Below are positions 16,447 to 36,770 of a stretch of 57,566 nt of DNA, piece by piece (position 1 is the first letter of the stretch; every line of letters begins with the position of its first letter). The DNA is from an uncultured virus (IMG/VR IMGVR_UViG_3300042197_001533) (taxonomy: Duplodnaviria > Heunggongvirae > Uroviricota > Caudoviricetes). Below the pieces are notes generated by a model. That model was not told the origin of the DNA and made no database searches. It saw only the letters and a program-made list of their open reading frames with translations. Position numbers and translations under genes: made by a program. Where the stretch lies: IMG/VR virus record IMGVR_UViG_3300042197_001533; one strand, given 5' to 3'.

Positions 16447-17153
16447 ATGTTTAAGAAACTTTGTGGTTCAATTTTAATGGTCATCGGTGCCATTGTGTTG
16501 GCCGCCATCGCCCTCGTCACACTGTTGTCTGTAATCGTAATCGTGGCAACAGCTCTCATTGTGGCTCTCATTATCTTTGGTGTATCTACACCATTCATTG
16601 CGATGACGCTTTACGGTGTCGGTCTGTATAAAGACGGTGCTCGGTAAAAAACAAAACAACCTATGGCAAAACTAATCGGTTACACACTTGCAACACTCAT
16701 CCTCTCCGGCATTTTCTGTTGGTATAACTACATCTGGTGGGCGACATCCATTCCCTTTCTGGCACTTCTGCTGATTGCCGCTTTGGCAATCTGGGTGGTG
16801 CAGGAACAGAAGCCCATTGGAGTGTTGTTTGGTTGTTTGTTTTTCGTGTCGTTCGCCCTTCAAATTCTGAAGTGGTTCTCAGTGGTTTCTTTTCCGATTT
16901 TCAAGTAAAACGTCGGGCAACTCATAAAACTATGTTCACAAAGTTCCTCGGTTATGTTGTTATTGGTATCGGTTTCGCCGCCCTCGTCATCGGCCTCAGC
17001 GCCCTCTTCGCATTGCCCTTCATGTGGCTGTGGAACGCATTGATGCCAGACATCTTTGGTTTGAAGGTTTTGAGCTTCCTCCAGGCGTGGGGATTGCTCG
17101 TCCTCTCAAGTTTCTTGTTTAAGAATTCTTCGATTTCTTCAAATAAGGATTGA
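16447..17153 (+). other. Three small membrane proteins (16447-16647, 16663-16908, 16932-17153)
   Basis: Long hydrophobic stretches in each ORF. Confidence 0.7.
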
Positions 17154-17184
17154 CGAATCGGGTCGGTTGTAGTATTCTTTTAAC

Positions 17185-17500
17185 AGTTCTTTGATTGAAT
17201 TTTCAGTTGGGTCGCTCCCACTGACTAACGGTATTTGGTGAGTTACCGTGAGAGAGACGTGAATAGCTTATTACTAGTAAAAGCGCTGGGAGAGTCCCGG
17301 AGAAGTGGATGCGAATTCCACAACGGAACAACACATTATCCTCGTGGATAATTCGTGTGAGTGAAATCCTCAAAAGAATCATCAAACTCGGAAGTAATTA
17401 CTCCGACGAGGCCTATGACCGGACGGGCGTTACGCTCGGCCTAGTGAAAGAAATCATACGTCCCAGTAGGGATATGTTGGTTAAGCCTCCAATTTCGCGG
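17185..17500 (+). ncRNA. Putative ~310-nt structured non-coding RNA
   Basis: Own promoter (TTGACG..TATTCT, ~17150-17178), no ATG at the usual position, about 10 hairpins. Confidence 0.65.
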
Positions 17501-18807
17501 TTGACATCTTTTAATCTTCGTGGTATTGTAGTTGCACAATGAAACTAAACATTCGAGATTTCTCTCTGAGGCATCTGATGATGATGCGTAATTCTATCCT
17601 CCACGAAAATTGGAAGACTCGGTTCACCGTCCAAGAAATCAACGCTGAGTGTGACCGCCGTGCCCGGATGAACACTCCTCTCTCCGTCCGTAAAGATCCT
17701 TCAATTTACACGCCGTAATTTGTTGACTTTCTATAAAATCTAGCCCATACTGTCCGCACAATGAAAGGTATCCCTACAGTTCGTGATTGGAAAGTGACCG
17801 ACAAGGAAACTGGCCGGTCTGTCATCGTCACCACCATCAACAAGCGTTTCGCTCGTTGGGAAGCAAGTGACCAAGGCATTAACGGTAACGTGTCGGTGTC
17901 TCTCGTTCGTAGCCCGAAGTTGGTTCGCCGAGATGGAGTTTTTGGAATCGTAAATTAAACAAATTAAACAAATGAAAACTAAAACGATGTATGGGTGTTT
18001 GTGTGATGGAGACATTCGTGTGTTTTCCACCAAAAAGAAGATGCTTTGTTGGTATATGTCACGATACAACTGTTCTAAACGATTTGCAACGGACTTAATG
18101 GCAGCGGGAATGCAAGAAATTTATTTGGATTAAGGCTTGACTTCTTATCGCTTCTGAGATATTCTATTTACACAATGAACAACGAAACTAACGGTTCCAC
18201 TGTCACCTCCACCTCGAAGCCCGAAATGAACTACGCGGAGAAGGTCGCCTTCCTCGCCGCCGTCCGCAAGGAGTGTGGTCTGGACAAGGTTGAGACTGAC
18301 CTTCACACCGACGAGTCGCCTGCTGGCAAGTATGTGACGGAATACACCTTCGGCACGATTTAACCAAAACAAAACAATGCCTACAACATACACAAGCAAA
18401 CTCGGTCGTAGTGAACCCGCGTGGTTTCTTCGTGATAACAGAGTCGTGAACCTTCCCATCGGTTCCGTCACAGTCAAATCGGTATCCAATCAGGACGGAT
18501 CGCCCAACTACGAATCCGTGGTCTATGGTTTTCGGATTTTCACCTCGAACGGCCGGGACTTTAAGGAGTGGTTAGAACTTGACGAACGGACTGTTTTCGG
18601 CACCAAAGAGGAACTTTTAGCCTCGTTGTAAAATGAGCGGTCGCCCTTACCCCGAATCGTATCAGAGCACCGAGTGGGATATTCTCGGTAGAGCAGTTTG
18701 GTTCTGTTTAGGGGCGACCGCAGGTGGGATTCTGGTGGTGACGATTATTTACAGAATCGGCCTTTGAGGGTTGACAATCGGAACGGTTTGCGGTATTCTT
18801 TTAACTC

Positions 18808-18883
18808 ATTGGTGATGGATTGATGATGAGTCGTTCATCCCTCCGTAAAATCGGACGTCTGGGGCGCGATAGGCTCCACCAAT
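18808..18883 (+). ncRNA. Degenerate cloverleaf RNA
   Basis: ATTGGT/ACCAAT closing stem, GGGGC-GCGATAG-GCTCC T-arm-like hairpin; first element after the promoter at 18771. Confidence 0.45.
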
Positions 18884-18887
18884 TTAT

Positions 18888-19006
18888 TGCTCCCTCTTGG
18901 GATACGGATTGAGTGTTAGGTCGGTGTTCAGACCGATAATCTGCGAACCTAATAACAAGTGCCTCATCAGCTGCCGTAGTTGGATCGATGCCAACGGGAG
19001 CAACCA
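18888..19006 (+). ncRNA. 119-nt RNA with tRNA acceptor/T-arm and a large inserted domain
   Basis: TGCTCCC/GGGAGCA-A-CCA, GTTGG-ATCGATG-CCAAC, nested stems TACGG/CCGTA, TGTTAGG/CCTAATA, TCGGT/ACCGA. Confidence 0.7.
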
Positions 19007-19009
19007 TTT

Positions 19010-19128
19010 GAAAGTGTGGCGGAAGATAACCGCACTCAGTAAGTAGCTGCAACTTAGACACACGAAGGCCAAGTGTGAGGCGGAGTTACCGAGAGACAAT
19101 GCAGGTCCGAACCCTGCCACTTTCACCA
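19010..19128 (+). ncRNA. 119-nt tRNA-like RNA with branched anticodon-arm insertion
   Basis: GAAAGTG/CACTTTC-A-CCA, D-arm GCGG/CCGC, T-arm GCAGG-TCCGAAC-CCTGC; internal hairpins TAAGT/ACTTA and CACAC/GTGTG. Confidence 0.7.
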
Positions 19129-20488
19129 GAAGTAGGGATTGATGTGCTGTGTCAGTCTTAAAACGCTAACCTACTTCGTTTAATTTATGAATGCTACTCA
19201 AATATCTTTAATCGTAATGTTGTGGGCGTCCACCGCCATCGTGTGGATTCTGGACTATCTCGATAAACGTCCGTTAGGCTCCACTGCGATGTGTAGTCGT
19301 GGAGCATTGATGTTCACGATCACCATCACCATCCACATTGGTCTGGCTGTGTTATCTGAACACTCTAAATGAAAACCGCTCAAGAATTAGTAGAAGGACT
19401 CGAAAGAGTCGAACGTCAGGAACATCCTTCAGATAAAGTTGCTGCATGGGAAGCGTTTGTTGACGAGATTCAACTTGATGCCTGTCAATCACAAGCTGAA
19501 CGGATTCTGACGCTGATTGCTGCTCGTGGAATTGACGTGACCGATTGTGATGGCGATGATGACACAGCAGTGATTCTCGCAAATTGGATTGTCGGGCGTA
19601 TTGAAGAAGCAGATGAACGCCACGCAAATTTGGTGAACCAATTTTAATTATGATCGATGAACCACTATTGAAAGAATCGGAACTGTTGAATTACATCGCA
19701 AAAATGCCGATGGCAATTCAACGGCAGTTTGACAACCGCCACAAAGTCACCAAGGCACATTTTATCTGGGAAGGATATTCCGAGGACCAGGTCAATCTTG
19801 CGATGTCGAGGATGGTTAAGATAGAAGCAGACGTGAACACGGGACCGACGGTCACTCATATCAGTTCTGACACATCATTCATCGAATCTGTCGGGTATAT
19901 GTTCGTGTTGGATTCCTCATATCCATCTCTGTTTAACCGATTTGTTCGTCAGCACATCCTTTCTTCCATCTACAAACCAAAAATCTTGCCCGTGGATCAG
20001 GATAAAGCTCTGAATCAGGAACTTGACCGTCTCTGTGCAACTGAGAACCGGACTACAGCTGGTGTTGCACAACCGCCTCCACTTCCCAAACCATTGAAAA
20101 TTAAGTGTCTGGACAGTGGACTGTTCTCTGGCAACCTCTCCGGCAACCTCTCTCTGTTCGAGACAGCAACACTGTTGTTTTTCGGGTTCATCGTCATTTG
20201 TCTCTGTGCCAAATTTCTATAAAAAGGTGTTGACTCCCTGACCCGGTGGTGTAATCTGTCCGTATGAAAAATAAAGGCAAATACATGGCTCAGAGGCAGG
20301 GTATGTTTGGTCTTAACATCGGATTCGGTCCAACCATCAAGGCGGCTTTGAAGAAAGCGGACGTTGACATCAAAAATGACGGATTTGGATTGTTCACCGT
20401 CAAGGGTGGTGAGATTGTCAGAATTAAAGCCAACGGCCAGCCCGAATGAGGCTTGACTTTATTTAATTTTACTGTAATCTGTCCCTAC

Positions 20489-21124
20489 ATGAAACTGCTT
20501 CCTCAAAAATTCGTTAAGAACTACGACAAGATGGGCGACAACACCTTCATTCAGTTGAAGATGGTTCCCACCGTTACCCTTAACGCTTACATCTACCGTC
20601 GTGAGCGCATGGACGGTTCTTTCGTCGCGTTTGAAGTCTTCGTGGCCAAGCAACGGTTCAAGGGTCAACCTCTGCCGGGTGGAGTCGTGGAGGCGGAGGA
20701 TCGTGAGCAGTATCCTACGGCCAACAACTTCGGGTTCACCGCGAAGGAGTCGAAGTCCATCGAACAGGCCGAAAGGTTCCTCGCCGAGTTTGTCGAGAAG
20801 ATGCAGTCGAAGGAAGACAAGAAGAACGGTGTGAAGCCTGTTGAGGATGAAGGGTTTATGGAGGCTCTCTCCGCGAAGATGAACCTTCCCAAGAAGCAAC
20901 GTGGCCGGAAGCGTAAGGAACGGCCTGCCATCGTCTATCCGACTGGGAAGCAGTGGCTTATGAAGGATCTTCTGGCCATCAACCCCGTGTGGAACCAACC
21001 TCTGGCCTACATTCAGGTCCAAAAGGATATGGAAGCTGGTCTGGTTGTGGAGGTTGCACGAGTCAAGTCGGCTAGTGGTAAGGGTCGGGCAGCAGTCGCC
21101 TACAAGGCGGTCAAGACGGTTTAA
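20489..21124 (+). CDS. Putative DNA-binding protein
   Basis: Basic KKQRGRKRK patch and C-terminal SGKGRAAVAY wing-like motif; start moved to the post-promoter ATG. Confidence 0.45.
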   Translation: MKLLPQKFVKNYDKMGDNTFIQLKMVPTVTLNAYIYRRERMDGSFVAFEVFVAKQRFKGQPLPGGVVEAEDREQYPTANNFGFTAKESKSIEQAERFLAEFVEKMQSKEDKKNGVKPVEDEGFMEALSAKMNLPKKQRGRKRKERPAIVYPTGKQWLMKDLLAINPVWNQPLAYIQVQKDMEAGLVVEVARVKSASGKGRAAVAYKAVKTV

Positions 21125-22490
21125 TAGGAAGGCCAGGGATGGCCAGGGTTCGCTTAGGATAAGTGGACCAGGTTTCGACCTGGTCCACAGACCACAGAGG
21201 GTTAAAACGATTTCTATTCAAAGGGCTTGACTTTCTATAAAATCTAGCCCATACTGTCCGCACAATGACAATCGTTCAACACAATCGGTCGGGGTCAGAA
21301 ACTCTCCTTCGGGACGACAACGACATCCTCCACATTCAGCGGGTCGGAGAGGTTATGACTAACGTAATCCCATACAACCACGCCGTTCGTCTCAACGAGG
21401 AAACGGATTCTTTCGAGGATATTGGTCGGGTCTTCCACTCCATTCTTTCCTAAAATGAACCTTACTTCTCTCCAATCCGTAGCTGATTTGATTCTCTCGT
21501 CGGGCTGTAAGCCTAACGCCAGGTATCGTCGGGCACTTCGGGCGTTGACCAAACTCGAACAGCTCAACAACCAACCGTATGTCCCTCCACAGGGAACCGA
21601 TTACAACGTGGTGTTGGTCAACGGTCGGGAGGTTAAGTTGTTCGTTCCCAAGGGAATGAACGTGTTCCAAGTGGCCCAAAAGAACGGGTATCAGGTCCAA
21701 TCGGTGATGAAGGCTTGACATTCTATAAAAACCAGATAGACTATTCCCACAATGAAAACAAAGAAAGCACTCGTCTCCAAAGTCGTCTCCATCGGTGATC
21801 TCCGCCAACGGGCCGCGAAGGACCCTCGCTACCTCCAGCTGGCCATGATTTCCGCAAGCAACCTCGGGGGGTCCCCGAAGAATCTGGATGACGCCATCAA
21901 CTGGCTGAACACTAACGCCATGGAGACTGACGAGGATGGTGTGGTCGGTGAAATCAACTTCTGTCGGGACTTGGTGAAGTAATTGGTTGACTTTCTATAA
22001 CCACCAAGGTATTCTTTAATCACACAACATGAAATACACATACAGAATCGACACCCAAGGCCTCAGCAAAGACACCACCTACCTGGTCTTCAAGTTTGAC
22101 CGAAATCTTTCAGCTCAAAGCGTGTATCTTTCAACGAAGAATGACCAAGTTCCAAAGGACGTTCAAGCACTGTTGGCGGGAGTGAACCGCGTCAAGGGAG
22201 TGATTTCCGGCTCCGCTGGAGAATTCAATTCCTCGGGTCTGATTCAGGTGGATGGAAACGAACTTATGGTGCAAATCATCGCGGTGGACACCAAGGAGAT
22301 TCCGAACATCGCTGACCGGATTGTGAAGCGTGTTCAACGCCGTTACGCCAAGGGAGAACCCCGTCAACGGATGAACCTCGTGAAGCTTCATGCTGAGCTG
22401 GTTCGGCTGAACAAAGCTGCCGATGAGCTGGCACTCCTCACCGGAATTTAAGTTGACTTCCGGAGACGGATTTGGTATTCTTTTAACACG

Positions 22491-22937
22491 ATGAACGACG
22501 ACGTTGAACAAGTTGAACTTGCGAAGAAAATCGCCAGCATGGCCCACGAGGGCCAGTTCCGCCGAGACGGCGAGGAACCTTACATCGTCCATCCGGCTCG
22601 GGTAGCCAAACGGGTGGCGAAGGAATTTGACAATCACATCGAAGACTCGGAGTTTTTCGTGGCGGTGGCTTGGTTGCACGATTCCATCGAAGACTCTGAC
22701 GGAAAGGTTCACGCGAACTGGCTTCTTCATAAAGGCGTCGACCCGGCGATTGTGGATGGTGTCGTGGCTATCACGAAGGTTGACGGCGAGGAATACGAAA
22801 AGTATCTGGCTCGTGTGAAGGCGAACAAGTATGCTCGGACGGTCAAGATTCAGGATATGCTGGATAACCTCTCCAGTTCACCTTCTCAACGTCAGATTGT
22901 GAAGTATGCGAAGGGTTTGCAGTTTCTTCTCTCCTAA
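22491..22937 (+). CDS. HD-domain hydrolase, SpoT/MESH1 ((p)ppGpp hydrolase)-like
   Basis: AHEGQFRRDGEEPYIVHP, AWLHDSIED, VKIQDMLDNL. Confidence 0.85.
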   Translation: MNDDVEQVELAKKIASMAHEGQFRRDGEEPYIVHPARVAKRVAKEFDNHIEDSEFFVAVAWLHDSIEDSDGKVHANWLLHKGVDPAIVDGVVAITKVDGEEYEKYLARVKANKYARTVKIQDMLDNLSSSPSQRQIVKYAKGLQFLLS

Positions 22938-24894
22938 TGAATACAGACCGATTTCGTTTAGACACTTGGAACGGCCGGAACTGGATTGTTTCAAGCGGTT
23001 GGTTGACCAAAGATGAAGTGTTTGCGAAGCTTCTTCAATCTTCCAATGACGGGCGGATGTGTCGGATTGTTGAAAGTTGCATGCCATGATTAATAACAGT
23101 CACCAAATAGTTCACCGAGTTGCGGTCAATGGTGCCACCTGGTTCTTAAACCTTGACGATGATTTCGCTGACGGTGGAGAAAATTGGCACGGCAACTTGG
23201 AAGGTCTGCACGAACGTCTTGAGGAGATCTTCGGCCCAACGTGGAAAGAACGAGTCGAAATCCAGAAGTGGGAGTTGTCCGAGAAACGAATCGAGGCTTG
23301 ACTTCTTATCATTTCTGGGATAATCTAGTCCCACAATGAACAACGTGATTCCAGTCGTAACCCTCCGTGACCTCAACTACTCCAAAGTTCCGCAGGATGC
23401 CATCAACATCCCCGCCGGCACCCACTTGGAGATCTTCTTCAGCGAGAAGAACCACGCCAAGGCAGTCTTCGTCCACAACGGCATCCGCCGGGCCCTCTTG
23501 GTGTCTAACCTCCACGCGAGCGTGAAGGCGACCAATGGTGTCAAGTTTCGGAAGTCGCCGAGTCTGGCTGCTCTCGAACGTCAGTCGAACGATGGCGTCT
23601 GCACGACTGTCACTGGCCACCGCGTGGAGCCGGATGGCTTCGGTCCGGATGGTTCTCCGTCGTGGTTGTTGGTCATGGGCGTAATTTAACTCTCAACTCT
23701 ATGAAAGAATACAAACTCCTCAAGTCGTTGGATGTCAATGGTGTCCGTGTGAACGTCTTCGTTGACGGCACCATCAAAATTTACGGAAAGAACAAGGCTG
23801 CTTCCGACGTGATTATGCGTTACATGGAAGCCGAGGGAATCTTGGACAACATCTTCAATGCAGCGGATTTTAAGTGCAAACGAAACTAAATTATGAACCT
23901 AAGCACCTTCTTCAAGTCACGATTCAAGACCTATCGCGTCATCCTCCGTTCTGGAAACGAGTTCCGAATCTCCGCTTCGGATGTGAAGATTTCTTTCAAT
24001 TCCGCCAGCAACCAAATCACCAAGTATGAATTTGTGGAACCGAAGGGTGAGGTCCCTTTCCATTGTTCTCCGTTGGAGATTGTTGCGATTGTTCGTGTGA
24101 AGGCTTGACTTTCTATAAAAACCATCTACACTGGTTACACAATGAATCTAACGATTAACAAAGTCTCCCATCACCGTAACGGCGTCTGTGGCGTTCCGTT
24201 CACCGTCATTCTTTTCACCGACAATGAAATCGGTGGTGGACCAATGGTGGCCACAATTTCTGATGATGATACTCTGGCGTGTCACGTCTTGAACATCGGT
24301 GAGTTGAACCGAGGCAACATTGAGTTTGCGAACGGAAACAGCTGGCGGGGTGACCGTTATGCCGGACCTCTCCTTGAGTTGGTGGAATCTTTTGAGAAGC
24401 GGAATTGAATGAACGAGATTAACAAACTCGCTATTGGTGCTGCACTGGCGGCGTCCAACGATTCCGTTGTGGTTGATGACACACCGAAGCCGAAACTCAG
24501 CCAGATGCTCGCAGCTGCAGCAATGCTGTATGTCAACACGAGCAACATTGGTCCTCTCCCAGACTTTGGCGGTGGAAAATATGAACGCGGCACCCGACTT
24601 GGTTTGTGTAAAAAGGACGGAGAAGTGTTCACTGATTCTCGTGGTCGCAAATACGTCTATAAAAACGGAACAATCAAACGAGTCAAGTAAAATATGAAAA
24701 CTCTTACCGTGAATGGCCGCGAGGTTACTATCCATGACGACCTACGCATTTCAGTCAAATGTTCTGGTCAAGAAGAATACATTAAAATTGTGAAATACCT
24801 TCAAAAAGAGGGATTCATTAACATTGAAGATTACAAACCGAAATCTGAGTGAAGGCTTGACTTTCTATAAAATCTAGCCTATACTGTTCACACA

Positions 24895-25407
24895 ATGAAA
24901 ACAGCATCAATCAAACGCGGTTCAATCGTCACCAACGTCGTTCCCATCAAGGAATGCAACAACCTCAATCCCGTCGGCACCCTCGGCCAGGTCACTCGGG
25001 TTCTCCGCAAGAAGGGCCAGGTCGTGGTCAAGTTCCGTGATGGTTACGGTTACATCGTTCCACTGGAGAACGTTGCGTTGTCTCCGGTGAACAACCAGAA
25101 GGTGCCCAAGGTCGGTGATTTGTTCTGCTCCAGTTGGGGTTACGACCAGACCAACATTGATTTCTATCAGGTGACCGCTGCAATCAGCGCAAACACCGTC
25201 GAGGTCCGCCGTTGTGGTAGTAAGCAGACCGACTATCAGAACCTCAGCGGCCACGTCAAGGCGGACAAAGGCAACCTCCAAGGCGAGCCTAAGAAGCATC
25301 GGGTTCTTTACGATATGCAGGGTAACCCGTCGTTCAAGGTGGCTTCCTACGCTCGGGCCTGGCCAACGGACGAGAATGCTGAACACTTTTTCTCAGAATG
25401 GCATTGA
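24895..25407 (+). CDS. Hypothetical phage protein
   Basis: 170-aa ORF after a promoter; SSWGYDQTNIDFYQV motif. Confidence 0.7.
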   Translation: MKTASIKRGSIVTNVVPIKECNNLNPVGTLGQVTRVLRKKGQVVVKFRDGYGYIVPLENVALSPVNNQKVPKVGDLFCSSWGYDQTNIDFYQVTAAISANTVEVRRCGSKQTDYQNLSGHVKADKGNLQGEPKKHRVLYDMQGNPSFKVASYARAWPTDENAEHFFSEWH

Positions 25408-25440
25408 CATTTCGGTGAACACGGTTTAACCTCTATCTAC

Positions 25441-25743
25441 ATGAATCCTAGAAAATACCTCTTTACAAAACCAGAAGCAGTCGCAATGGTGGCAACTATT
25501 GCACTATCTCTCGTTCTCCTCGTCGGTTGCACAGAGAATCAACGGGCAAAGAGTTTCGGCGGCACGGCGAATGTTAATCTGCCTGCCAGTCAGAAGTTGG
25601 TCAATGTGACTTGGAAGAACGAACAGCTGTGGTTCCTCACCAAACCAATGGCAACCAACGACGTGGCAGAGACTTACACGTTCAAGGAGAATTCGAGTTT
25701 CGGTTTGGTTCAGGGAACGGTGGTCATCGTGGAGAAGAAATAA
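25441..25743 (+). CDS. Putative lipoprotein
   Basis: Hydrophobic signal ending in lipobox-like LLVGC. Confidence 0.65.
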   Translation: MNPRKYLFTKPEAVAMVATIALSLVLLVGCTENQRAKSFGGTANVNLPASQKLVNVTWKNEQLWFLTKPMATNDVAETYTFKENSSFGLVQGTVVIVEKK

Positions 25744-28700: not shown

Positions 28701-28866
28701 TCTCTTCCCGTAATGAACGACGGCGGCAGTCGATAACTGCCAGTGAGGCGATCAAACGCCAACGATTGGGGGACCGGAGAGAGCGCACATCCCTTTATCG
28801 TTATCTATCATTTCCATTAAATAAAGGCTTGAGGTCCGACCTTGTTGCTGATATTCTATTTCCACA

Positions 28867-29265
28867 ATGAACAACGACAAGAAACACCTCTTCAAGTATA
28901 TGAAGGTCACCCAGGCGCAGATTCGGTCATTCCTCAAGAAGCAGCTTTCCACGAATGAGGCGTGGGCCCTTCGGGCGCTCGTGAAGATTCACGAGTTCCA
29001 GACGATGGACGAGCAGGCCGCTGGTGTCACCCGCGAGGCGAATTCGGTCGGGTTCAGTGGGTGCGACGCAGAGTTTCTGACCAGCCTCACCCGCCAATAC
29101 CTGACTCGGGGTTCGCTTAGCCCGAAGCAGATGGGTTTCGTCTTCAAGAAGATGCCTCGTTACTGGGGACAAATCAAGGGGCTCATTCCGGCGGACCAGT
29201 TGGTTGCCTTGATTCTCGCTGACCGGGCCAAGGCAGCGACGCCTACGCCGCTGGTGACGGCTTAA
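28867..29265 (+). CDS. Hypothetical phage protein
   Basis: 132-aa ORF after a promoter. Confidence 0.7.
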   Translation: MNNDKKHLFKYMKVTQAQIRSFLKKQLSTNEAWALRALVKIHEFQTMDEQAAGVTREANSVGFSGCDAEFLTSLTRQYLTRGSLSPKQMGFVFKKMPRYWGQIKGLIPADQLVALILADRAKAATPTPLVTA

Positions 29266-29307
29266 GATTTTACTTGCTTTAACTGTTAATTAGATTAAAA
29301 TAAACCT

Positions 29308-30051
29308 ATGGAAATACTCGGCATCGACACTAACGCGAAAACCGTAAAAGGGTCAGAGTTTGGTTATTTGACCGGAATCTCATACCTTGCACCATCCGAC
29401 GAATCCGGAGTTGCAAACACTTGCCCGGACGCATCTTCGGGATGTAGGGAGGCGTGTCTGTTCACCGCTGGTCGCGGCGCGATGGATAACGTAAAGTCGG
29501 CTCGGGTCAACAAGACTTTGGCCTTTTTTAAGAATAAAAACGTCTGGATGAAGCAATTGGCCGTTGAGATTACCCGACTCATTAAAAAGGCAAAGAAAGA
29601 CGGCAAACTCCCCTGTATCCGTTTGAACGGCACGAGCGACCTTCCCTGGGAACGTGTGAAGTTGGATGGTAAGAACATCATGGAACACTTCCCGACCGTG
29701 CAGTTTTACGACTACACGAAGTCTATCAGCCGGATGAGGGATTTCCTTTCGGGTGGTTTGCCTTCAAATTACCATTTGACCTTCTCCCGTAGTGAAGACA
29801 ATGATGCGGATGTTAATGAAGTGCTTGCTAATGGAGGCAACGTCGCAGTGGTGTTCAGGGGTTCGCTTCCCGAGACGTTCAAGGGATTCAAGGTAGTTGA
29901 TGGGGATTTGACCGATCTCCGATTTGCGGACGAGAAGAACGTGGTGGTTGGCTTGACCCAGAAGGGCAAGGCTAAAAAAGACGAGTCTGGGTTCGTAGTG
30001 GAACCACTGGGGGTACCCCTCCCGAAGGAGGTTGACTTAATCGCAGTTTAG
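29308..30051 (+). CDS. GP88-family phage protein
   Basis: CPDASSGCREACL...GRG, IRLNGTSD, QFYDYTK, YHLTFS, VDGDLTDLRF. Confidence 0.8.
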   Translation: MEILGIDTNAKTVKGSEFGYLTGISYLAPSDESGVANTCPDASSGCREACLFTAGRGAMDNVKSARVNKTLAFFKNKNVWMKQLAVEITRLIKKAKKDGKLPCIRLNGTSDLPWERVKLDGKNIMEHFPTVQFYDYTKSISRMRDFLSGGLPSNYHLTFSRSEDNDADVNEVLANGGNVAVVFRGSLPETFKGFKVVDGDLTDLRFADEKNVVVGLTQKGKAKKDESGFVVEPLGVPLPKEVDLIAV

Positions 30052-30073
30052 AATATACTTATAGAAGATTGAT

Positions 30074-30149
30074 GCCCTCGTAGCTCAATTGGCAGAGCAC
30101 GGTTTTTGTAAAGCCGATGTTACAGGTTCAACTCCTGTCGAGGGCTCCA
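30074..30149 (+). tRNA. tRNA-Thr(UGU)
   Basis: Cloverleaf, CGGTT-TTTGTAA-AGCCG, CCA end. Confidence 0.95.
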
Positions 30150-30396
30150 GACTTTACTTTAACAGTTGAACGATAACGTAAGATATGAAAGCTAAGTTTC
30201 TAAAAGATACGTCAGTTGATATACTGGATGCTAACGACGAACTTTACAACAAGTTCTTTCGTAAGGATGATGAGGTCCAAGTCGCGGACGGTGACGATCA
30301 CCGCCTCGTGAGCCTCGGCAGCCAATTCGTCAACATCCTTTTAATGAACGGTGAACTTCTCCTTGACGTTCCCCGTAATAGTGTTATCATTCTTAA

Positions 30397-30684
30397 ATGA
30401 GTGCTAACAACATCCTTCAATTTCCTGGTGCAGCTGCACCGCAACCACGTCCTACCAGCATCACCCTCAAAGACACCGCGAGTGTAGAGTGTGATGAATG
30501 TAAAAATACCACCTTCAACGAGGCGATGATCATGCGTAAGGTCTCCCGACTCCTCACTGGAGCTCCAAAGGATTCTTATGTGCCCGTCCCTGTATTTCTT
30601 TGTTCAGCGTGCGGACATCTCAATGACGAGTTCCTCCCAGCGGAGTTGAAGTCTGGTCCGGCACCCAGTCTCGTCAAGGCCTAA
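30397..30684 (+). CDS. Zinc-ribbon protein
   Basis: CDECKN...CSACGH. Confidence 0.65.
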   Translation: MSANNILQFPGAAAPQPRPTSITLKDTASVECDECKNTTFNEAMIMRKVSRLLTGAPKDSYVPVPVFLCSACGHLNDEFLPAELKSGPAPSLVKA

Positions 30685-31480
30685 GGTCTGGTGGTACCCC
30701 TCCCAGACGGGGTGTTTATGACAATCTCTTTAACGGATTCTTTTCAAAGAAAAACCGAGTTAAGTTCTCGGAAAGAAATGGAATTTCTTATCCGTAATGC
30801 TCCAGAGATGGGATATGTAGAGAGGATTTTTTCTGATTTGTATGTCCAAACTGGACTGGATGAATCAGTTCCTTCCACCAGAGATTTTGTTGGGCAAGAG
30901 AAACGTATGTTGGAAGAGATGTGACAATCGAACTTAAAACCTACGAGGCGACCGCTGCTGAAGTGTTTGATTTAACTTATTGGTCCTGCGAACACTCAAT
31001 TGAAGTCAAAGATTTCATTGACACCCTTATGCCAGACACCGATAACACGTTCAGCACAAGACACTTCTGCGGAGATCCTTTCGCAGAAATTATCGAAGAA
31101 TTATTTATTTGACTTCTTCTAAGACCTGCGGTATTATATTAACAATGAAAACACACTTCACCATGACGGTTGCAGAAGCTGAACATCGTCTCGCCGGGCT
31201 GATGTTCGACGAACTCCCGTATTCCGACAACGAGATTTCGGTCAAGATTAATGTCCCCGAGGTTGGCAGCGATAACCTTCCCATCGGCCAGGTGTCCAAG
31301 ATTGCGTTGATTAAGTTGGTCCGCACTCTGGCTGAAGACGTTCTTCAGAACCGTGTGAAGGTGACGACCCGTGAAGCAGGAAACTCATACGCCGGAGAGA
31401 AGTATTTCGGTCTGGGTGACGCGAAGGAATACGTTGAGAAGTATCTCAAAGCCAATTCTCCACAGGTTTAATTTTACAAT

Positions 31481-31566
31481 GGGCACGTGGCGTAATGGCA
31501 GCCGCATCGGACTTAAAATCCGCTGGTAGTGATACCGTGTCGGTTCGAGTCCGACCGTGCCCACCA
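31481..31566 (+). tRNA. tRNA-Leu(UAA)
   Basis: Anticodon loop CTTAAAA, long variable arm, CCA. Confidence 0.95.
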
Positions 31567-31799
31567 CTTTATGAACAGATTCGATTACGATGGCCAGGCT
31601 GACCTAAACCGTTACCGGCTTCATTCACGATACGGGTCCACGTTCATCACTCTCTGTGACCGACAGATTGTTGACTCGGTTGACCATTACAATAGTCCCG
31701 ACATCTGGATTCAGAACCGAAACGAACTTCATACCACTTTGTCGGATTTGAGTCGGTTTTGGGCATTTCATCGGAACACAGTTGGCACCAGACACTAAC

Positions 31800-32042
31800 A
31801 TGATCCTAGCTGCTGCAATCCTCAAAGATGGTGTGATTTACACGGGCAAACGTCACTGTAACATCATCCGAGATACACCTAAACACCTTCGGGTGGGCAA
31901 AGGACCGCACGTTCAGGGTTTCGTTGACCACGAGGGTAATTTTTTAAATCGGGAGGAGGGGGCTAAGCACGCTAAACTCTGGGGGCAGATAGAGAAACTC
32001 AAGTTCAATTCAAAAGAACTATTTAGCGAAGATTTGTGGTAA
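31800..32042 (+). CDS. Conserved-type hypothetical phage protein
   Basis: AAAI..GKRH..QGFVD..FLNR..ELFSEDLW. Confidence 0.65.
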   Translation: MILAAAILKDGVIYTGKRHCNIIRDTPKHLRVGKGPHVQGFVDHEGNFLNREEGAKHAKLWGQIEKLKFNSKELFSEDLW

Positions 32043-32640
32043 GGCTTGACGATAAAAACTTTTAGTGTAAGATTAGAACCGTTAGAGAAACAACAAATAA
32101 AACAATACAATGAACCGAGTCCATTCGCTCCGCAAGTCAGGCAACAAGGTTAGTGTTACGCACCGTCGTCGTTACTTCGACCCCGTGAATCGTCGCTGGT
32201 CGGTGCTTTCACGTTACGAGCGTGCTCTCGCTCCTCTCCCCGATTTCGTCACCGCTGACGTTCGTGGTGGTGAGACGGAGGTTTCGCTTCGCACGAAGGA
32301 GGGCCGTGAGCTGACTGCTGTGGCGAAGTGTTCAAAGAAGGACATCTACGTGCGGTCGGTGGGATTGAATACTGCCTTGGATGGTCTGGTGTTCGAGGCG
32401 ACCAAGCCTACGGTCGTCATCTCTCAGTTTGTTACTGACCCGTGTGCATACACTCAGATGACTATCAATTTGGCTCCCGAGACAGCCGCAGGTAAGTAAG
32501 TTCTCGGTTGGAAGGAAATCCAATCAAAACCAATTAGATAATACATAATAGAAAAGTTCGTGAGCAGCTATAAAAGCTCTCTGGTGGAGGCGGTGAAAAG
32601 GAGCAGCAGCAATGTTGCTCCTTTTCCATGTCCACGGACA

Positions 32641-32666
32641 CAAAAAAACCGACTTCAAGAGTCGGT
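32641..32666 (-). terminator. Intrinsic terminator ending the tRNA array
   Basis: ACCGACT-CTTGA-AGTCGGT followed by a U run on the - strand. Confidence 0.8.
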
Positions 32667-32671
32667 GAATC

Positions 32672-32745
32672 TGGAGCCCGAGGTTGGAGTCGAACCAACG
32701 TATCTTGTTTACGAAACAAGAGTAATACCGTTATACGACTCGGGC
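32672..32745 (-). tRNA. tRNA-Thr(CGU)
   Basis: CTTGT-TTCGTAA-ACAAG, CCA. Confidence 0.9.
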
Positions 32746-32750
32746 GAAAC

Positions 32751-32824
32751 GGAGCTCCTTATTGGAATCGAACCAATGTTCCCGCATTACCAATGCGGAG
32801 TAATAGCCATTATACTAAAGGAGC
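32751..32824 (-). tRNA. tRNA-Thr(GGU)
   Basis: CCGCA-TTGGTAA-TGCGG. Confidence 0.9.
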
Positions 32825-32830
32825 AGACTG

Positions 32831-32906
32831 CTACGGTTGGCGGGCTCGAACCACCGACTCCGGCATTTATACGTCGCCGGCTATGTTACCGCTACACCAA
32901 ACCGTA
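32831..32906 (-). ncRNA. tRNA-like RNA with 11-nt anticodon loop
   Basis: TACGGTT/AACCGTA acceptor, normal D and T arms, CCGGC-GACGTATAAAT-GCCGG. Confidence 0.7.
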
Positions 32907-32914
32907 AGAAAATT

Positions 32915-32992
32915 GATGCGGATTTCACGCGGCCCCACGGGCCGTTTTGTTGTTCCCATCTGGGGGTACCTCCCAGTCAGGTCTATCGCATT
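32915..32992 (-). ncRNA. GAUAGAY..GUGAAAUCC motif RNA, copy 2
   Basis: ATGCG-ATAGACCTGA..two hairpins..GTGAAATC-CGCAT. Confidence 0.6.
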
Positions 32993-33022
32993 CTTGTGAA
33001 CTTAGTTACTACATTTGCAACA

Positions 33023-33093
33023 TTAATCGTATGGAATCGAACCATATCCTTTAGGCCTAGCTGGCCTCTGTGCATCCACTACACCACAATCAA
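33023..33093 (-). pseudogene. Atypical tRNA (loop CAGCUAG; nominal GCU, A33, no Ser variable arm)
   Basis: TTGATTG/CGATTAA, GAGGC-CAGCTAG-GCCTA, TATGG-TTCGATT-CCATA. Confidence 0.6.
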
Positions 33094-33120
33094 TGTCACA
33101 ACCTTCTTCTCATCACAAAC

Positions 33121-33196
33121 TGGTAGGTCCGTAGGGATTTGAACCCTAAACACGACGTTCGAAGCGTCGGATGATATCCAGTTTCACCACGAACCC
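33121..33196 (-). tRNA. tRNA-Arg(UCG)
   Basis: CGACG-CTTCGAA-CGTCG, CCA. Confidence 0.92.
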
Positions 33197-33599
33197 ATTA
33201 AATCAAATCCAGAAGGTATGAATGTCTTTGTCCTCATCGTGAGTGACCTGAACACTACCAAACTTAAATTCATTACCGTTCTCTTCCACCTGTCGGGCAA
33301 ACTCTGACACCGAACCGAAGATTTCTTCGATCAGATTCTCGTTTGTGCAGTTTCCCAATCTATCCATGTTTTTCATAAAATCAATTTCCGCCCATCAACT
33401 GAGCAAGTTCGTGTTGCCAAATGTGTTCCGCTTGTTTTACTTTCTGCGGTTCACCTTTATCGTTCACCCAGATGTGGGTCCAAACAATCATACTCACCGT
33501 TCCACCGTCAATCTTTCCGGTGCCCTTTAAGTAAGTATCTTCATTGCCAGTGATAATCACGGGTACAATTTACCACGATTTTTTATATTGTCAAGGGGA

Positions 33600-33675
33600 T
33601 GGTTGCAGCCGTGGGAGTCGAACCCACCTATTCTGTCTTATGAGGACAGCGCCTAATCCGCTCAGCCAGACTGCA
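33600..33675 (-). tRNA. tRNA(CAU), Met or Ile2
   Basis: CTGTC-CTCATAA-GACAG, CCA. Confidence 0.88.
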
Positions 33676-33734
33676 ATGAAATGTTACGGGAAGACTTATG
33701 CCGTAGCTGCTCCTTGAGGCCACCGTATTGGCAC

Positions 33735-33815
33735 TGGTTGGCCCGACCAGCACTCGTCCTGGCTCTCTTCCGCTTATGAGGCGGGCGCTTATACAAAGAT
33801 TTAAGCTTCGGGCCA
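33735..33815 (-). tRNA. tRNA(CAU) with atypical T-loop
   Basis: CCCGC-CTCATAA-GCGGA; T-loop GACGAGTG; CCA. Confidence 0.75.
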
Positions 33816-34342
33816 ATTCAAATCAAAGTTTCTCAATCTTCAAATCCGTCGGAGGATACACCTTCGAGATAAGTGTGACCTTTCCAACGAAAAACGGGCC
33901 AGACTCTTCGCCGTCGGCCTTGTAAATACGTCGAATGTCATTCAACGCACTATTTTCCTCCCGGTAAAAACACGGCGTGTCACTTGTCGAACCGTTTTCA
34001 TCGGTGATCTCGTGGTCTTCGTTGAGAATGACGTAAGGGAATTCCATTTTGTCTGAGTTCATAGGAGACAATCTTACACCACTTCTTTTAGATTACAAGC
34101 CCCTTCTTCTTCAAAGTGCGCTTGAAAACGGTTGCATCACCAATCTCGTTCCAACTTGATTTCCGACCAAGAATGTGTCGGATGGCGTTGAGTGCGTCGA
34201 AGTTGGTCAAACTCTTGCCCTTTGTTCCACCGGGAATAGAATCAGCGGTGTCAAGGACTTTGTTGATGGTTTCTACAAGTTCAGCGGGATGTTTCATGTA
34301 GGACAACTCTACCACTTTTTATCGAATTGTCAACCGATTTTC

Positions 34343-34433
34343 TGTAGTCCTATCCAGAATCGAACTGGCCAGTACCCCAATCTAGGGATTATACGTGTTA
34401 TAAGCACGCCCATGCACCTTACATCTTAGGACC
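34343..34433 (-). tRNA. tRNA(UAU), nominal Ile, with long variable arm
   Basis: GCGTG-CTTATAA-CACGT; V-arm ATCCC-TAGATT-GGGGT. Confidence 0.75.
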
Positions 34434-34835
34434 ATTCTAAATTAAAATTCTGTAAGTGAAGTCTTTCATCGGCCATGCACCGCTGGTCAACCAATACTTT
34501 CGGTTTTTCCAATCACCGACATCTCCACTCAACTGTTTAAGGATACTATCAATCTGAGGTTTGTCAATGTTGATTGTATTGACGTAAATCTTTCCTTGGC
34601 GGTTTCTCACCTTGACCATGAAAGCACCTGAGATTTCAGTGCAGTCAACCATTGACACGATGCGTTTACGGAGTTCTTCGGTGGTCATTTGAATTAAATA
34701 GAGTAAGATTGGTAAATTGACGCCACATCCATTTTCTTGCGGTATTCATCTTTGTAGAGAGTGTCGGGAGCCAGTTTATAAAGCTCATACCAATAACACC
34801 ACTCCAAGTAATACCAATATCTTTTTTTCATAAAA

Positions 34836-34910
34836 TGGTTGTCATGGGGAATTTTGAAATCCCGGCCCTTCCCTTATCAAGAGAACGCTCTGCCTCTGAG
34901 CTACATGACA
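34836..34910 (-). tRNA. tRNA-Ile(GAU)
   Basis: TTCTC-TTGATAA-GGGAA, CCA. Confidence 0.88.
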
Positions 34911-35022
34911 ATAAAACCATGACGGAATAACACTGCCGTAGTTGGCTACGGATCCAATAGGTAATCGTGCACGGTAACAAACCGTTGAAAACCACGCCTA
35001 CGTTACAGTTACACCGTCAAGA

Positions 35023-35098
35023 TGGTGCGCCCGGCGAGACTCGAACTCGCGACCAAGTGGTTAAAAGCCACCTGCTCTACCAACTGAGCTACAAGCGC
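35023..35098 (-). tRNA. tRNA-Lys(UUU)
   Basis: GGTGG-CTTTTAA-CCACT, CCA. Confidence 0.95.
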
Positions 35099-35325
35099 AT
35101 GAACTAAATGTTGTCGGGAGCAGTCTCATACCCTTCCGTGTATCCCTTGATGTAATGGTTCCGTTCTGCGAGGGACCATTCTTTTGGGAAGGGGAATGTG
35201 CTTTTGGCTTTCAAACCGTGATAACTATCGTTCCAACCGTCTTCAAGACCCGACTGCCACGCTTCAAGGTTTGCTTTCATCTGGGACAACTTTACCTTAA
35301 AACGATAAAAAGTCAACTACTAAAT

Positions 35326-35401
35326 TGGAGCACCGTGTAGGAGTCGAACCTACTTGAAACTCTTTTGCAGAGAGTTGCCTTGCCGTCCAGACCCACGATG
35401 C
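35326..35401 (-). tRNA. tRNA-Cys(GCA)
   Basis: ACTCT-CTGCAAA-AGAGT, U73, CCA. Confidence 0.92.
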
Positions 35402-35407
35402 ATTAAA

Positions 35408-35626
35408 TTACTTCTTTTTCTTCTTCAACCCCTCACCACGATAGTTCCACGCGTCAAGTGCCTTCAAAAAGTTTCGGTCATCTGACTCATAGACACCGGG
35501 GCCAGAAGCACCACAGTTCACACAAATCGCTTGTGTCGGAACGCCTTCACGGTCTTTCGTTCCTCGTTGGAATTCAACTTCTTCTTCGTTGCCACAGAAT
35601 GGGCAAGGTTTAACGTCGAGTTTCAT
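35408..35626 (-). CDS. Lar-family restriction alleviation-like zinc-finger protein
   Basis: KPCPFCG...CVNCGASGP...AWNYR. Confidence 0.75.
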   Translation of the reverse strand: MKLDVKPCPFCGNEEEVEFQRGTKDREGVPTQAICVNCGASGPGVYESDDRNFLKALDAWNYRGEGLKKKKK

Positions 35627-35665
35627 TTGTAGGACAACTCTACCACACTTCTTTTAATTGTCAAG

Positions 35666-35739
35666 TGGCAGTCCCTGATGGAATCGAACCACCATCGTAG
35701 CTTTCAGAGAGCTCCGTAATACCACTATACCAAGGGACT
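35666..35739 (-). tRNA. tRNA-Gln(CUG)
   Basis: Loop CTCTGAA, G73, CCA. Confidence 0.88.
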
Positions 35740-35744
35740 ATAAC

Positions 35745-35818
35745 TGGCTGGGACGGAGGGACTTGAACCCCCAATCTTCTCGTTCAAAGCGAGGTGCAAT
35801 ACATTATGCTACATCCCA
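35745..35818 (-). tRNA. tRNA-Gln(UUG)
   Basis: Loop CTTTGAA, TGGGATG acceptor, CCA. Confidence 0.9.
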
Positions 35819-35827
35819 ATAAAGGCC

Positions 35828-35957
35828 GACGGGATTTCACTGGTTTACATCTTGTAGTTTCCACCTTTGCAGCCGGCGGTGGTCGCAACTACTAATGCTT
35901 ATCAACCTATTCTGTTACTCATCCCACTTAGAAGAGGGCCTTTCACATCTATCCGTC
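35828..35957 (-). ncRNA. GAUAGAY..GUGAAAUCC motif RNA, copy 3
   Basis: GACGG-ATAGATGTGAA..hairpins..GTGAAATC-CCGTC. Confidence 0.6.
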
Positions 35958-35963
35958 TAAAGT

Positions 35964-36040
35964 TGGTGGGCCGGATGGGACTCGAACCCATATCGCAACG
36001 CTTAAGAGGCGCGCATCTAATCCAGTTGAACTACCGACCC
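35964..36040 (-). tRNA. tRNA-Lys(CUU)
   Basis: Loop CTCTTAA, CCA. Confidence 0.88.
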
Positions 36041-36142
36041 ATATTCCGTTGTTGGACTTTTACCAACGTCAGTGGCCTCATGGCGGACGGAAAAGAAGAC
36101 CTAACAGATTAAGCATTATTAAGAGGCTTGTTAGGTATGATA

Positions 36143-36217
36143 TGGTGCATCCACCCGGACTCGAACCGAGATCGCAAGGTTTAAAAGACCCGCATCTTCC
36201 ATTTGAATTATGGATGC
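36143..36217 (-). tRNA. tRNA-Lys(UUU)
   Basis: Loop CTTTTAA, CCA. Confidence 0.88.
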
Positions 36218-36226
36218 ATAACCGAC

Positions 36227-36300
36227 TGAGCTCCTTCCCGGAATCGAACCGAGTTGTCAAGTTTACAAAACTCGTGCATCACCATTTATGCTTAAGGAGC
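36227..36300 (-). tRNA. tRNA-Thr(UGU)
   Basis: CGAGT-TTTGTAA-ACTTG. Confidence 0.9.
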
Positions 36301-36309
36301 GAACTGAAA

Positions 36310-36384
36310 TGGGGTGATATACGGGAATTGAACCCGCGCTGACTTCTTCACAGGAAGTGATGCTACCATTACAACAATATCACC
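36310..36384 (-). tRNA. tRNA-His(GUG)
   Basis: ACTTC-CTGTGAA-GAAGT, G-1:C73, CCA. Confidence 0.92.
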
Positions 36385-36404
36385 ATTCTACTAAAATCGG
36401 CATC

Positions 36405-36489
36405 GAGATTAAGGATTTCACATTATTCCAACCAGTTGACCCCAGCGGGGTTCTTGGTTACTGATCAAGTTTTACGTCTATCTTCTCTC
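36405..36489 (-). ncRNA. GAUAGAY..GUGAAAUCC motif RNA, copy 4
   Basis: GAGAGAAG-ATAGACGTAAA..hairpins..GTGAAATC-CTTAATCTC. Confidence 0.55.
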
Positions 36490-36494
36490 CGCAC

Positions 36495-36570
36495 TGGTGC
36501 CTTTACATGGACTCGAACCAAGAATTTCACTTTCGTAGAGTGACGTGATTTCCAATTTCACTATATAGGC
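36495..36570 (-). tRNA. tRNA-Arg(ACG)
   Basis: TCACT-CTACGAA-AGTGA, CCA. Confidence 0.9.
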
Positions 36571-36579
36571 AAACTAAAC

Positions 36580-36654
36580 TGGCTCCCAAGGAAGGACTAT
36601 GCACCCTCTCGTCACGGTTAACAGCCGCGCATGCTACTTTAACATTACTCGGGA
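36580..36654 (-). tRNA. tRNA-Asn(GUU), atypical T-loop
   Basis: CGCGG-CTGTTAA-CCGTG; T-loop TGCATAGT; CCA. Confidence 0.8.
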
Positions 36655-36674
36655 ATAAAAACTAAATCACACTC

Positions 36675-36758
36675 TGGCTCGGGCGGCACGACTTGAACGT
36701 GCAGTTGCTTTCGCGGCGCATTAACAGTGCGCTGGGTTTACCATTCTCCTACACCCGA
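36675..36758 (-). tRNA. tRNA-Asn(GUU) with extended variable arm
   Basis: GCGCA-CTGTTAA-TGCGC; V-arm GC-GAAA-GC; G73, CCA. Confidence 0.85.
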
Positions 36759-36770
36759 ATTAAACCAACA

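Follow-up and report, generated by a model that had tools for sequence, protein, structure and literature searches.

A phage RNA motif with invariant junction strands and exchangeable cargo recurs in tRNA arrays and operons of uncultured phages

Introduction

A 57,566-nucleotide stretch of DNA from an uncultured virus of the Caudoviricetes (IMG/VR record IMGVR_UViG_3300042197_001533), hereafter the window, contains four copies of a short motif, most of them located among transfer RNA (tRNA) genes. The window has the appearance of a large lytic phage fragment, and 29 tRNAs are called in it by ARAGORN, mostly on the minus strand between 32.6 and 38.5 kb. The question raised by this locus is whether the motif is an RNA in its own right and what such an RNA could do for a phage. 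Comparison of the sequences indicates that the motif is a previously uncatalogued phage RNA family. The explanation we favour, with a probability of roughly one in three, is a self-folding T-loop-type handle that would dock a ubiquitous partner and present cargo.

Results

Four copies share one architecture

The string GTGAAATCC occurs exactly four times in the window, at 17361 (+), 32920 (-), 35832 (-) and 36413 (-), compared to about 0.44 occurrences expected by chance over both strands. Exact matches to GAKAGAYSTRA at 17252, 32977, 35943 and 36472 are the only zero-mismatch matches in the window, and each lies 66-120 nucleotides (nt) upstream of a GTGAAATCC on the same strand. The original prediction, made by a model from the letters of the window, had listed four copies in transcribed orientation, and all four were borne out in position and orientation. 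The closing stems it had named (TGAG/CTCA, ATGCG/CGCAT, GACGG/CCGTC and AAG/CTT) are all present, the last one together with an outer GAGA/TCTC stem.

From 5' to 3', each RNA consists of a strand of helix P1 ending in G, the strand AUAGA, helix P2, the strand GAAC or GAAU, a linker or hairpin P3, the strand GUGAAAUC, and a C followed by the 3' strand of P1. The segment between GAAC/GAAU and GUGAAAUC is either a linker of 3-8 nt or P3 with its flanks, and the copies measure 41-159 nt when counted between the invariant first G and the last C. A block GA(U/G)AGAYSURA had been predicted as a single unit; the block is present, but it is really a G, the strand A(U/G)AGA and the first bases of P2. 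Similarly, the two conserved flanking strands listed at that time hold, and the third strand, GAAC/GAAU, was missing from the list. The interior is variable as expected, the contents of P2 and P3 differing between copies and between orthologues while the ends stay.

Pairing was assessed on 38 copies aligned with a covariance model. Standard pairs fill 94.3% of the pair cells, compared to 60.4% in column shuffles (none of 500 reached the observed value) and to 34-51% in a control with slid partners. P1 pairs 2-4 each occur as four or five standard pair types, whereas the innermost G-C pair of P1 is invariant (38/38). The closing pair of P2 is C-G in 59, U-A in 8 and U-G in 1 of 68 collected copies, and G-U pairs occur within the helices. 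Compensation is seen directly in the P1 of copy 2 orthologues (AUGCG/CGCAU in the window, AUCCG/CGGAU in the relative G001, AUGUG/CACAU in the relative G011) and in the inner P3 helix when copy 3 is compared (CCACC/GGUGG versus CUGCC/GGCAG). Covariance model R1 was built from a six-row alignment with a hand-set structure, and its own alignments were used from then on; it is crude and misses copy 1 of the window because MAFFT could not align the variable interiors, and copy 2 scores 23.9 bits against it. A possible closure of P3, in which AC from GAAC would pair with GU from GUGAAAUC, is neither favoured nor disfavoured: the next bases were pairable in 21 of 50 copies with linkers of at least 5 nt, compared to 37.5% expected.

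The junction strands are constant. GAUAGA is followed by C in 58 of the 68 copies and by U in 9, and one copy has GAGAGA. GAAC or GAAU is present in all 68 copies and in 41/41 of those found without requiring that strand. When 125 kb of carrier DNA was scanned with a relaxed pattern (NANAGA ... NNGAAANN with P1 and P2), one combination recurred, AUAGA or AGAGA with GUGAAAUC, in 24 matches; the other 19 were all singletons, and reversed controls gave 5 matches. No recurrent near-variant of the junction strands was found in this carrier DNA. Since the helices merely covary, the junction stays constant and cargo-free copies exist, we regard the junction as the functional unit.

The motif recurs in unrelated uncultured phages

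A first pattern scan of IMG/VR returned 20 loci, which were mostly coding-sequence noise and included two true relatives. One, G001, is a 25-kb fragment closely related to the window, with six pattern-matching copies and a seventh, longer copy; the other, G002, is an unrelated 172-kb phage with three copies. Among the 89 loci returned by a scan for the P3-hairpin type, 13 have a P1 of at least four pairs. In a scan for the short-linker type (type B), P1 reached at least four pairs in 61 of 79 loci, compared to about 5% by chance, a figure calculated arithmetically with the G-C pair fixed by the pattern. All collecting scans demanded exact conserved blocks. In total, 68 distinct copies were collected from IMG/VR phage loci, often several per genome, a copy being counted if P1 had at least four pairs and P2 at least two, or if both had at least three. 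This count includes L076 (G017), which is located inside an open reading frame (ORF) of 629 aa, is probably false and was dropped as a true copy. Two further sequences were noted in locus L121 of G004: a degenerate copy at L121:4771-4839 (+), with AUAAA for AUAGA and two P1 pairs, and a GTGAAATCT 3' block following GGAAC at L121:9779-9787 (+), for which no 5' partner was found.

When 17 whole records were searched, the forward pattern was present in 17/17 and the backwards-read control gave 1 match. The contigs that carry the motif range from 36 kb to 354 kb, and several have three to eight copies. DNA resembling the array of the window (about half or more of the sampled words) was detected in freshwater, drinking-water, river and wetland runs (six further studies). 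Neither the tRNA array of the window nor three related loci had a Megablast match among 50,697 named phage records, and no cultured carrier was found there. In bacterial and archaeal genomes, there was one true copy (L142) among the matches listed (at least 120); it is identical to the G011 copy and lies on an 18-kb contig of a Planctomycetota metagenome-assembled genome, the contig probably being phage. Nine other candidates from bacteria and archaea were checked and lie inside frames open over 472-697 nt of 660-700-nt loci. Among the matches listed, the motif is thus essentially absent from the bacterial genome matches inspected.

No Rfam 15 family was found on any copy. At the Rfam gathering thresholds, the window gave tRNAs and one abiF match elsewhere, and none on the copies. 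At E<=10 over 32600-36700 and 17100-17500, no copy was overlapped except copy 1, whose first bases are reached by an antisense match (E 1.1) to a microRNA model, and in related loci at E<=1 the Rfam matches on copies were to tRNA inside P2 alone. No published description was found in the literature searched. The original prediction of an unrecognised non-coding RNA family is therefore upheld by numerous homologues, by strong P1/P2 covariation and by the absence of an Rfam 15 match.

P2 is an exchangeable slot

P2 holds short hairpins, modules resembling a T-arm or D-arm, or whole tRNA-like bodies. At one extreme is a complete cargo-free copy of 45 nt with a five-pair P2 hairpin (L132:2879-2923), and 9/68 copies are at most 60 nt long. 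At the other, ARAGORN calls a tRNA at L121:4492-4568 within the P2 of the copy L121:4473-4596, and in the predicted fold the acceptor stem of this tRNA is extended to 13 pairs by pairing of leader and trailer. The Rfam tRNA model scores 39.4 bits at L121:9823-9883 and covers model positions 6-65 only, the acceptor end of this tRNA body being replaced by the handle; it scores 28.1 bits at L124:1157-1227. Such tRNA-like modules are a minority, being backed by ARAGORN or Rfam in 3 copies, and the canonical GUUCRANYC string is found in the P2 of 6/68. One subfamily carries a T-arm and a D-arm-like hairpin, and another a UGACGA hexaloop on covarying stems.

Cargo can itself be constrained, judging from the P2 hairpin CUGGGAGGUACCCCCAG of copy 2, which is identical in three orthologues (window, G001 and G011) with differing P1 and P3. 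In other orthologues the interior is exchanged. The copy 4 orthologue in G001 keeps both ends and has a different interior, and an apparent counterpart of copy 1 in G011 (L124) has the same P1 core, UGAG/CUCA, around a different tRNA-like interior. According to sequence and predicted fold, a T-arm-like hairpin with the loop UGCGAAU, GUGGA-UGCGAAU-UCCAC, lies inside copy 1 of the window. A river-water relative (run X11) skips 17260-17371 and retains the flanks.

Swapped interiors between kept ends would also be seen if the motif were an element of DNA rather than RNA, a recombination or homing site bounding mobile cassettes. An HNH/endonuclease VII-like ORF lies in the tRNA array of the window at 36828-37403 (-), and an HNH ORF in G004 (L121:3967-4470 (+)) ends 3 nt ahead of a motif copy; both are possible homing endonucleases that could mobilise cassettes of the array. 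We consider a DNA-level site the least likely of all the explanations, since the motif is in transcribed orientation throughout with all adjacent tRNAs on its strand, its helices use G-U pairs, and its two end blocks do not form an inverted repeat.

The motif lies among tRNA genes and in operons without them

The three array copies of the window occupy tRNA-sized slots with tRNA genes on both sides, as predicted; these neighbours are on the same strand, 6-29 nt away upstream and 9-27 nt downstream. For 33 copies the flanking sequence reaches at least 1 kb, and in 15 of these a tRNA is at most 60 nt away, on both sides in 5. All adjacent tRNAs (20/20) are on the strand of the copy, and the downstream one often begins 7-14 nt past P1. 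Two phage records without tRNA genes also carry the motif: G006, a complete 49-kb phage, has two copies, and G016, a 63-kb record estimated to be 76% complete, has one. These copies lie between co-directional genes, near exonuclease and SbcC-like genes. The motif is therefore independent of tRNA arrays. Release by tRNA processing, which had been predicted, is plausible for the array copies but is not the full account, because of these two records.

No downstream gene recurs, the downstream features being tRNAs or unrelated ORFs. According to PHROG and Pfam scans, the neighbours in the window, G004, G006, G008 and G016 have HNH endonucleases alone in common, and phages frequently carry these. 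These surroundings bear on whether the junction could bind a small metabolite, probably a planar one, as an aptamer that serves as a sensor or sponge. Invariant junctions within covarying helices would suit an aptamer, the T-loops of the thiamine pyrophosphate riboswitch bind planar ligands by intercalation, and in G008 an ORF of unknown family follows a copy after 37 nt. Against this, no expression platform is conserved and the genes downstream do not recur, the majority of copies are flanked by tRNA genes or by unrelated genes, riboswitches do not usually come in several copies per genome, and the single real copy among the bacterial matches listed (at least 120) is on a probable phage contig. 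An aptamer is improbable on this evidence.

Coordinates of the window copies and features of the surrounding DNA

The elements of the four window copies are listed in Table 1. Copy 4 has no P3 and instead has the 3-nt linker AAU.

Table 1. Positions of the motif copies and their elements in the window
Feature	Position	Strand	Sequence or context
Copy 1, whole RNA including P1	17249..17372	+	intergenic among + strand ORFs
Copy 1, P1	17249-17252 with 17369-17372	+	UGAG with CUCA
Copy 1, P2	17258-17260 with 17323-17325	+	CGU with ACG; holds cloverleaf-like module
Copy 1, P3 hairpin	17335-17352	+	
Copy 1, junction strand J1/2	17253..17257	+	AGAGA, rare variant
Copy 1, GAAC strand	17326..17329	+	
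Copy 1, GUGAAAUC strand	17361..17368	+	
Copy 2, whole RNA	32916..32991	-	between tRNA-Ser(gct) and tRNA-Ile(tat)
Copy 2, P1	32991-32987 with 32920-32916	-	AUGCG with CGCAU
Copy 2, AUAGA strand	32982..32986	-	
Copy 2, GAAC strand	32952..32955	-	
Copy 2, GUGAAAUC strand	32921..32928	-	
Copy 3, whole RNA, long P3 domain	35828..35957	-	between tRNA-Lys(ctt) and tRNA-Gln(ttg)
Copy 3, P1	35957-35953 with 35832-35828	-	GACGG with CCGUC
Copy 3, P2	35947-35945 with 35915-35913	-	UGU with ACA; CGU/AUG in paralogue G001_d
Copy 3, AUAGA strand	35948..35952	-	
Copy 3, GAAU strand	35909..35912	-	
Copy 3, GUGAAAUC strand	35833..35840	-	
Copy 4, whole RNA	36411-36484; 36405..36489 with outer pairs	-	between tRNA-Arg(acg) and tRNA-His(gtg)
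Copy 4, P1	36484-36482 with 36413-36411	-	AAG with CUU
Copy 4, outer pairs of P1	36489-36486 with 36408-36405	-	GAGA with UCUC
Copy 4, AUAGA strand	36477..36481	-	
Copy 4, GAAU strand	36425..36428	-	
Copy 4, GUGAAAUC strand	36414..36421	-	

Several other features of the window were observed. Ahead of copy 1, the hairpins cagttgggtcgctcccactg and ggtatttggtgagttacc occupy 17203-17248 (+), between a weak promoter-like site (17150-17178) and the copy. Promoter-like sites (TTGACA-16-TAGAGT) number 19 on the array strand within 32500-38700 (-), compared to 9.9 in shuffles, and the tRNA array may be served by several promoters within it. At 33108-33180 (+) and 33121-33196 (-), the tRNAs called by ARAGORN overlap on opposite strands, and Rfam backs the minus-strand one only. 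A 72-aa ORF in the array (35408-35626 (-)) matches a Lar-like restriction-alleviation family (PHROG 599, E 8.5e-09).

The spacer that separates tRNA-Lys(ttt) from tRNA-Lys(ctt) contains the abiF match, which is full-length (RF03085; 36099-36135 (-); 40.8 bits compared to a gathering score of 37). Positions 36042-36141, which span this match, are replaced by two letters in a relative from a wetland (run X9). RNAs of the abiF type are otherwise found upstream of abortive-infection genes, and the phage copy could be an anti-defence decoy. The window also encodes a helicase and rIIA/rIIB homologues, beside two RNA ligase genes at 5691-6707 (+) and 12413-13504 (+) (Pfam RNA_ligase and RNA_lig_T4_1; PHROG 548 and 562). 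The two ligase genes suggest that the phage repairs cleaved tRNAs.

Discussion

A candidate T-loop-type handle

The string GUGAAAUCC fits the tRNA-type T-loop pattern G-U-N-N-R-A-N-Y-C (G53-U54-N-N-R57-A58-N-Y60-C61), including the closing G-C; the Rfam tRNA consensus T-arm used for the comparison is GG-UUCgAaU-CC. UGNNA is described as a conserved T-loop pentad by Lehmann et al. (PMC3664808), and T-loops are described as pockets that are filled by a purine from another strand (PMC4810234). The GUGAAAUCC pattern, the UGNNA pentad and the purine-rich partner strands together lead us to favour a junction of the T-loop type.

The RNA would be transcribed along with the phage tRNA array or an early operon. 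AUAGA, GAA(C/U) and GUGAAAUC would converge where P1, P2 and the optional P3 join, and GUGAAAUCC probably folds as a T-loop pocket that stacks against P1 and takes up purines from the other two strands. The outcome would be a compact knot resembling the corner of a tRNA, a handle by which all copies could dock the same ubiquitous partner, for which a component of the tRNA-handling machinery seems likeliest. P2 and P3 would carry swappable cargo, namely plain or anticodon-arm-like hairpins, elbow modules of T-arm and D-arm, or whole tRNA bodies. Within arrays, the RNAs would be set free when the neighbouring tRNAs are processed, and could then serve as stable, tRNA-sized decoys or adaptors. Beyond the secondary structure, we infer each of these steps: the T-loop fold, the existence and nature of the partner, the release of the RNA and its role as decoy or adaptor.

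A number of observations weigh against the handle. About 19 junction bases are strictly invariant across loci of 29-64% G+C, which is commoner in the cores of ribozymes and aptamers than in protein sites. Several cargo-free copies per genome lie in cis in polycistronic transcripts, an arrangement that a processing element fits at least equally well. No co-occurring protein family was found, and the neighbours in the two small phages (G006 and G016) are unrelated. The T-loop assignment rests on a nine-base pattern in which positions 55 and 56 are G and A, compared to U and C in tRNA, and the G partner of the last C is ambiguous because the innermost P1 G-C pair never varies. The invariance of the strands is also partly built in because the scans required exact blocks, although this is of less concern given the unrequired GAAY strand and the outcome of the relaxed scan.

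A possible cleaving or processing junction

Some of these observations lead to a second explanation, which we hold as a tentative alternative, less probable than the handle: the junction could be a new small self-cleaving ribozyme or an obligate nuclease site that cuts polycistronic phage transcripts in cis, with the variable helices merely holding the core and perhaps being released as products. Slightly less probable again is a specific version, in which the AUAGA/GAAY/GUGAAAUC junction would form a catalytic core and the motif would be a small RNA of a new class, self-cleaving or otherwise catalytic, with which phages punctuate tRNA arrays and early operons and release cargo including tRNA-like decoys. 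The build of the motif is consistent with such a role, since it combines about 19 invariant bases and covarying helices with an optional P3, a 45-nt minimum and tolerance of large insertions. Its genomes carry multiple sense-oriented intergenic copies in arrays and operons, a distribution typical of the hammerhead, twister, pistol, hatchet and HDV (hepatitis delta virus)-like ribozymes in phages, and neither a protein gene nor a regulated gene is associated with it. A tRNA-like body in P2 with a 13-bp extended acceptor helix would, moreover, need excision.

Other results are less easily reconciled with cleavage. No Rfam ribozyme family matched the window copies even at E<=10, in agreement with the original prediction that hammerhead, hairpin and HDV cores do not fit. 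No circularly permuted form was found in 430 kb of collected loci; a permutation scan of IMG/VR gave 99 loci, 5 of them with an intervening stem of at least 4 bp, and those inspected resemble tandem copies. Ribonuclease P (RNase P) and 3' nucleases process the flanking tRNAs anyway, and cargo loops conserved between orthologues point to a trans-acting RNA and not a mere cutter. Among ribozyme-like orphan motifs put to the test, cleavage is, as far as is known, the exception.

The aptamer, a tRNA-elbow receptor, a mimic of ribosomal RNA (rRNA) and the DNA-level site are all less likely than the handle and the cleaving or processing element. Given its 45-nt core with about 19 invariant junction bases, its presence in many unrelated uncultured phages and its absence from Rfam 15, the motif stands out as a strong candidate: it could be a ribozyme, an aptamer or an RNA-protein handle of a new kind. 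The tRNA-like cargo in its exchangeable slots ties it to the question of why phages carry tRNA arrays, and it bears on how phages answer host defences that target tRNA and on the extra small RNAs that arrays may yield.

Comparison with known systems

Orphan phage RNAs located beside or inside tRNA arrays include manA, GOLLD and ROOL. The motif has no sequence or model match to these and is far smaller and modular. Phage self-cleaving ribozymes resemble it in size, in having an invariant junction with covarying or optional helices, and in occurring as several sense copies, often near tRNAs; the motif differs from small self-cleaving ribozymes in having no Rfam match and no permuted forms. Its string GA-helix-GAAA recalls G8 A9-stem II-G12 A13 A14 of the hammerhead, which was rejected as there is no CUGANGA box in the junction and no Rfam match at E<=10. 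Membership of a riboswitch class was rejected as well, there being no recurrent regulated gene class and no expression platform.

Similarity to 16S rRNA was noticed at helices 21 and 23. The strings GUGAAAUCC and GGAAC are identical in E. coli 16S rRNA, but their pairing context and strand order differ, and the likeness may be a coincidence or a shared local fold. If the 3' half of the motif mimicked the helix 21 loop or the '690' hairpin of helix 23, it could titrate a ribosomal protein or ribosome-binding factor. In E. coli, GTGAAATCC (604-612) and GGAAC (627-631) indeed form opposite strands of one internal loop, and helix 23 has GGTGAAATGCGTAGAG, which contains GUGAAAU and then UAGA (L133). 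However, the Rfam small-subunit consensus pairs G604-G606 and leaves only AAAU/AC looped. The phage motif has nothing conserved to pair with its GUG, carries the two strings in reverse order and adds a third strand. The resemblance was also noticed post hoc, and mimicry of rRNA is very improbable.

Bacterial Y RNAs have a closing stem formed by their ends, with a conserved site, and a variable interior able to mimic tRNA (as described in PMC4201824). The motif resembles YrlA (RF02553) in its closing stem of both ends and its variable interior, which is tRNA-like in a minority of copies, and differs in that its tRNA body is joined via the acceptor end and not the anticodon stem. Membership was rejected: no copy has an RF02553 match, Ro60 (TROVE) was found in 1/16 records (0/4 among those at least 90% complete), and the Rsr motif GNCGAAN0-1G, in the form given in PMC4201824, is absent from the conserved strands. 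The record with Ro60 is G008, where Ro60, a YrlA-like RNA and the motif lie within one tRNA array. In this locus (L441, G008:45500-52991), the Ro60/TROVE gene (2660-4156) is preceded by the YrlA-like RNA (2201-2316), which is separate from the motif copies and scores 37.8 bits compared to a gathering score of 69, with clear T, acceptor-like and D arms.

RNase P, T-boxes and the L1 stalk all hold tRNA elbows by means of a double T-loop module, for which PMC3664808 gives the pattern AGNNA...UGNNA. A receptor of this type for the tRNA elbow would suit a motif that sits among tRNAs and has some elbow-like cargo. Its second pentad is UGAAA in 68/68 copies (required by the searches) and fits UGNNA, and the Rfam model of RNase P class A has ACAGAAA, a helix and GGGUGAAA in the same 5'-to-3' order, with AGAGA at that place in E. 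coli. The first pentad, in contrast, needs G at position 2 (AGNNA) and is AUAGA in 67/68 copies and AGAGA in 1. In addition, the would-be docking-platform residue, two before the first T-loop, falls in the second P1 pair, which is paired in 38/38 copies with 4 pair types, and the two phage records without tRNA genes carry the motif nonetheless. Membership of the double T-loop family and the docking platform were rejected accordingly, and an elbow receptor is about as improbable as an aptamer.

The single T-loop, known from the T-arm of tRNA as well as from RNase P, T-box leaders and the L1 stalk, is one of the closest comparisons for the candidate handle. The motif, whose fold is predicted from sequence, differs from it in lacking a T-stem, in having G and A at positions 55 and 56, and in having AUAGA and not AGNNA as the partner strand. 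It shares with the T-loop the GUGAAAUCC pattern and the UGNNA pentad, and its GUGAAAUCC is located beside the helix that carries the ends of the RNA, like the T-arm in tRNA.

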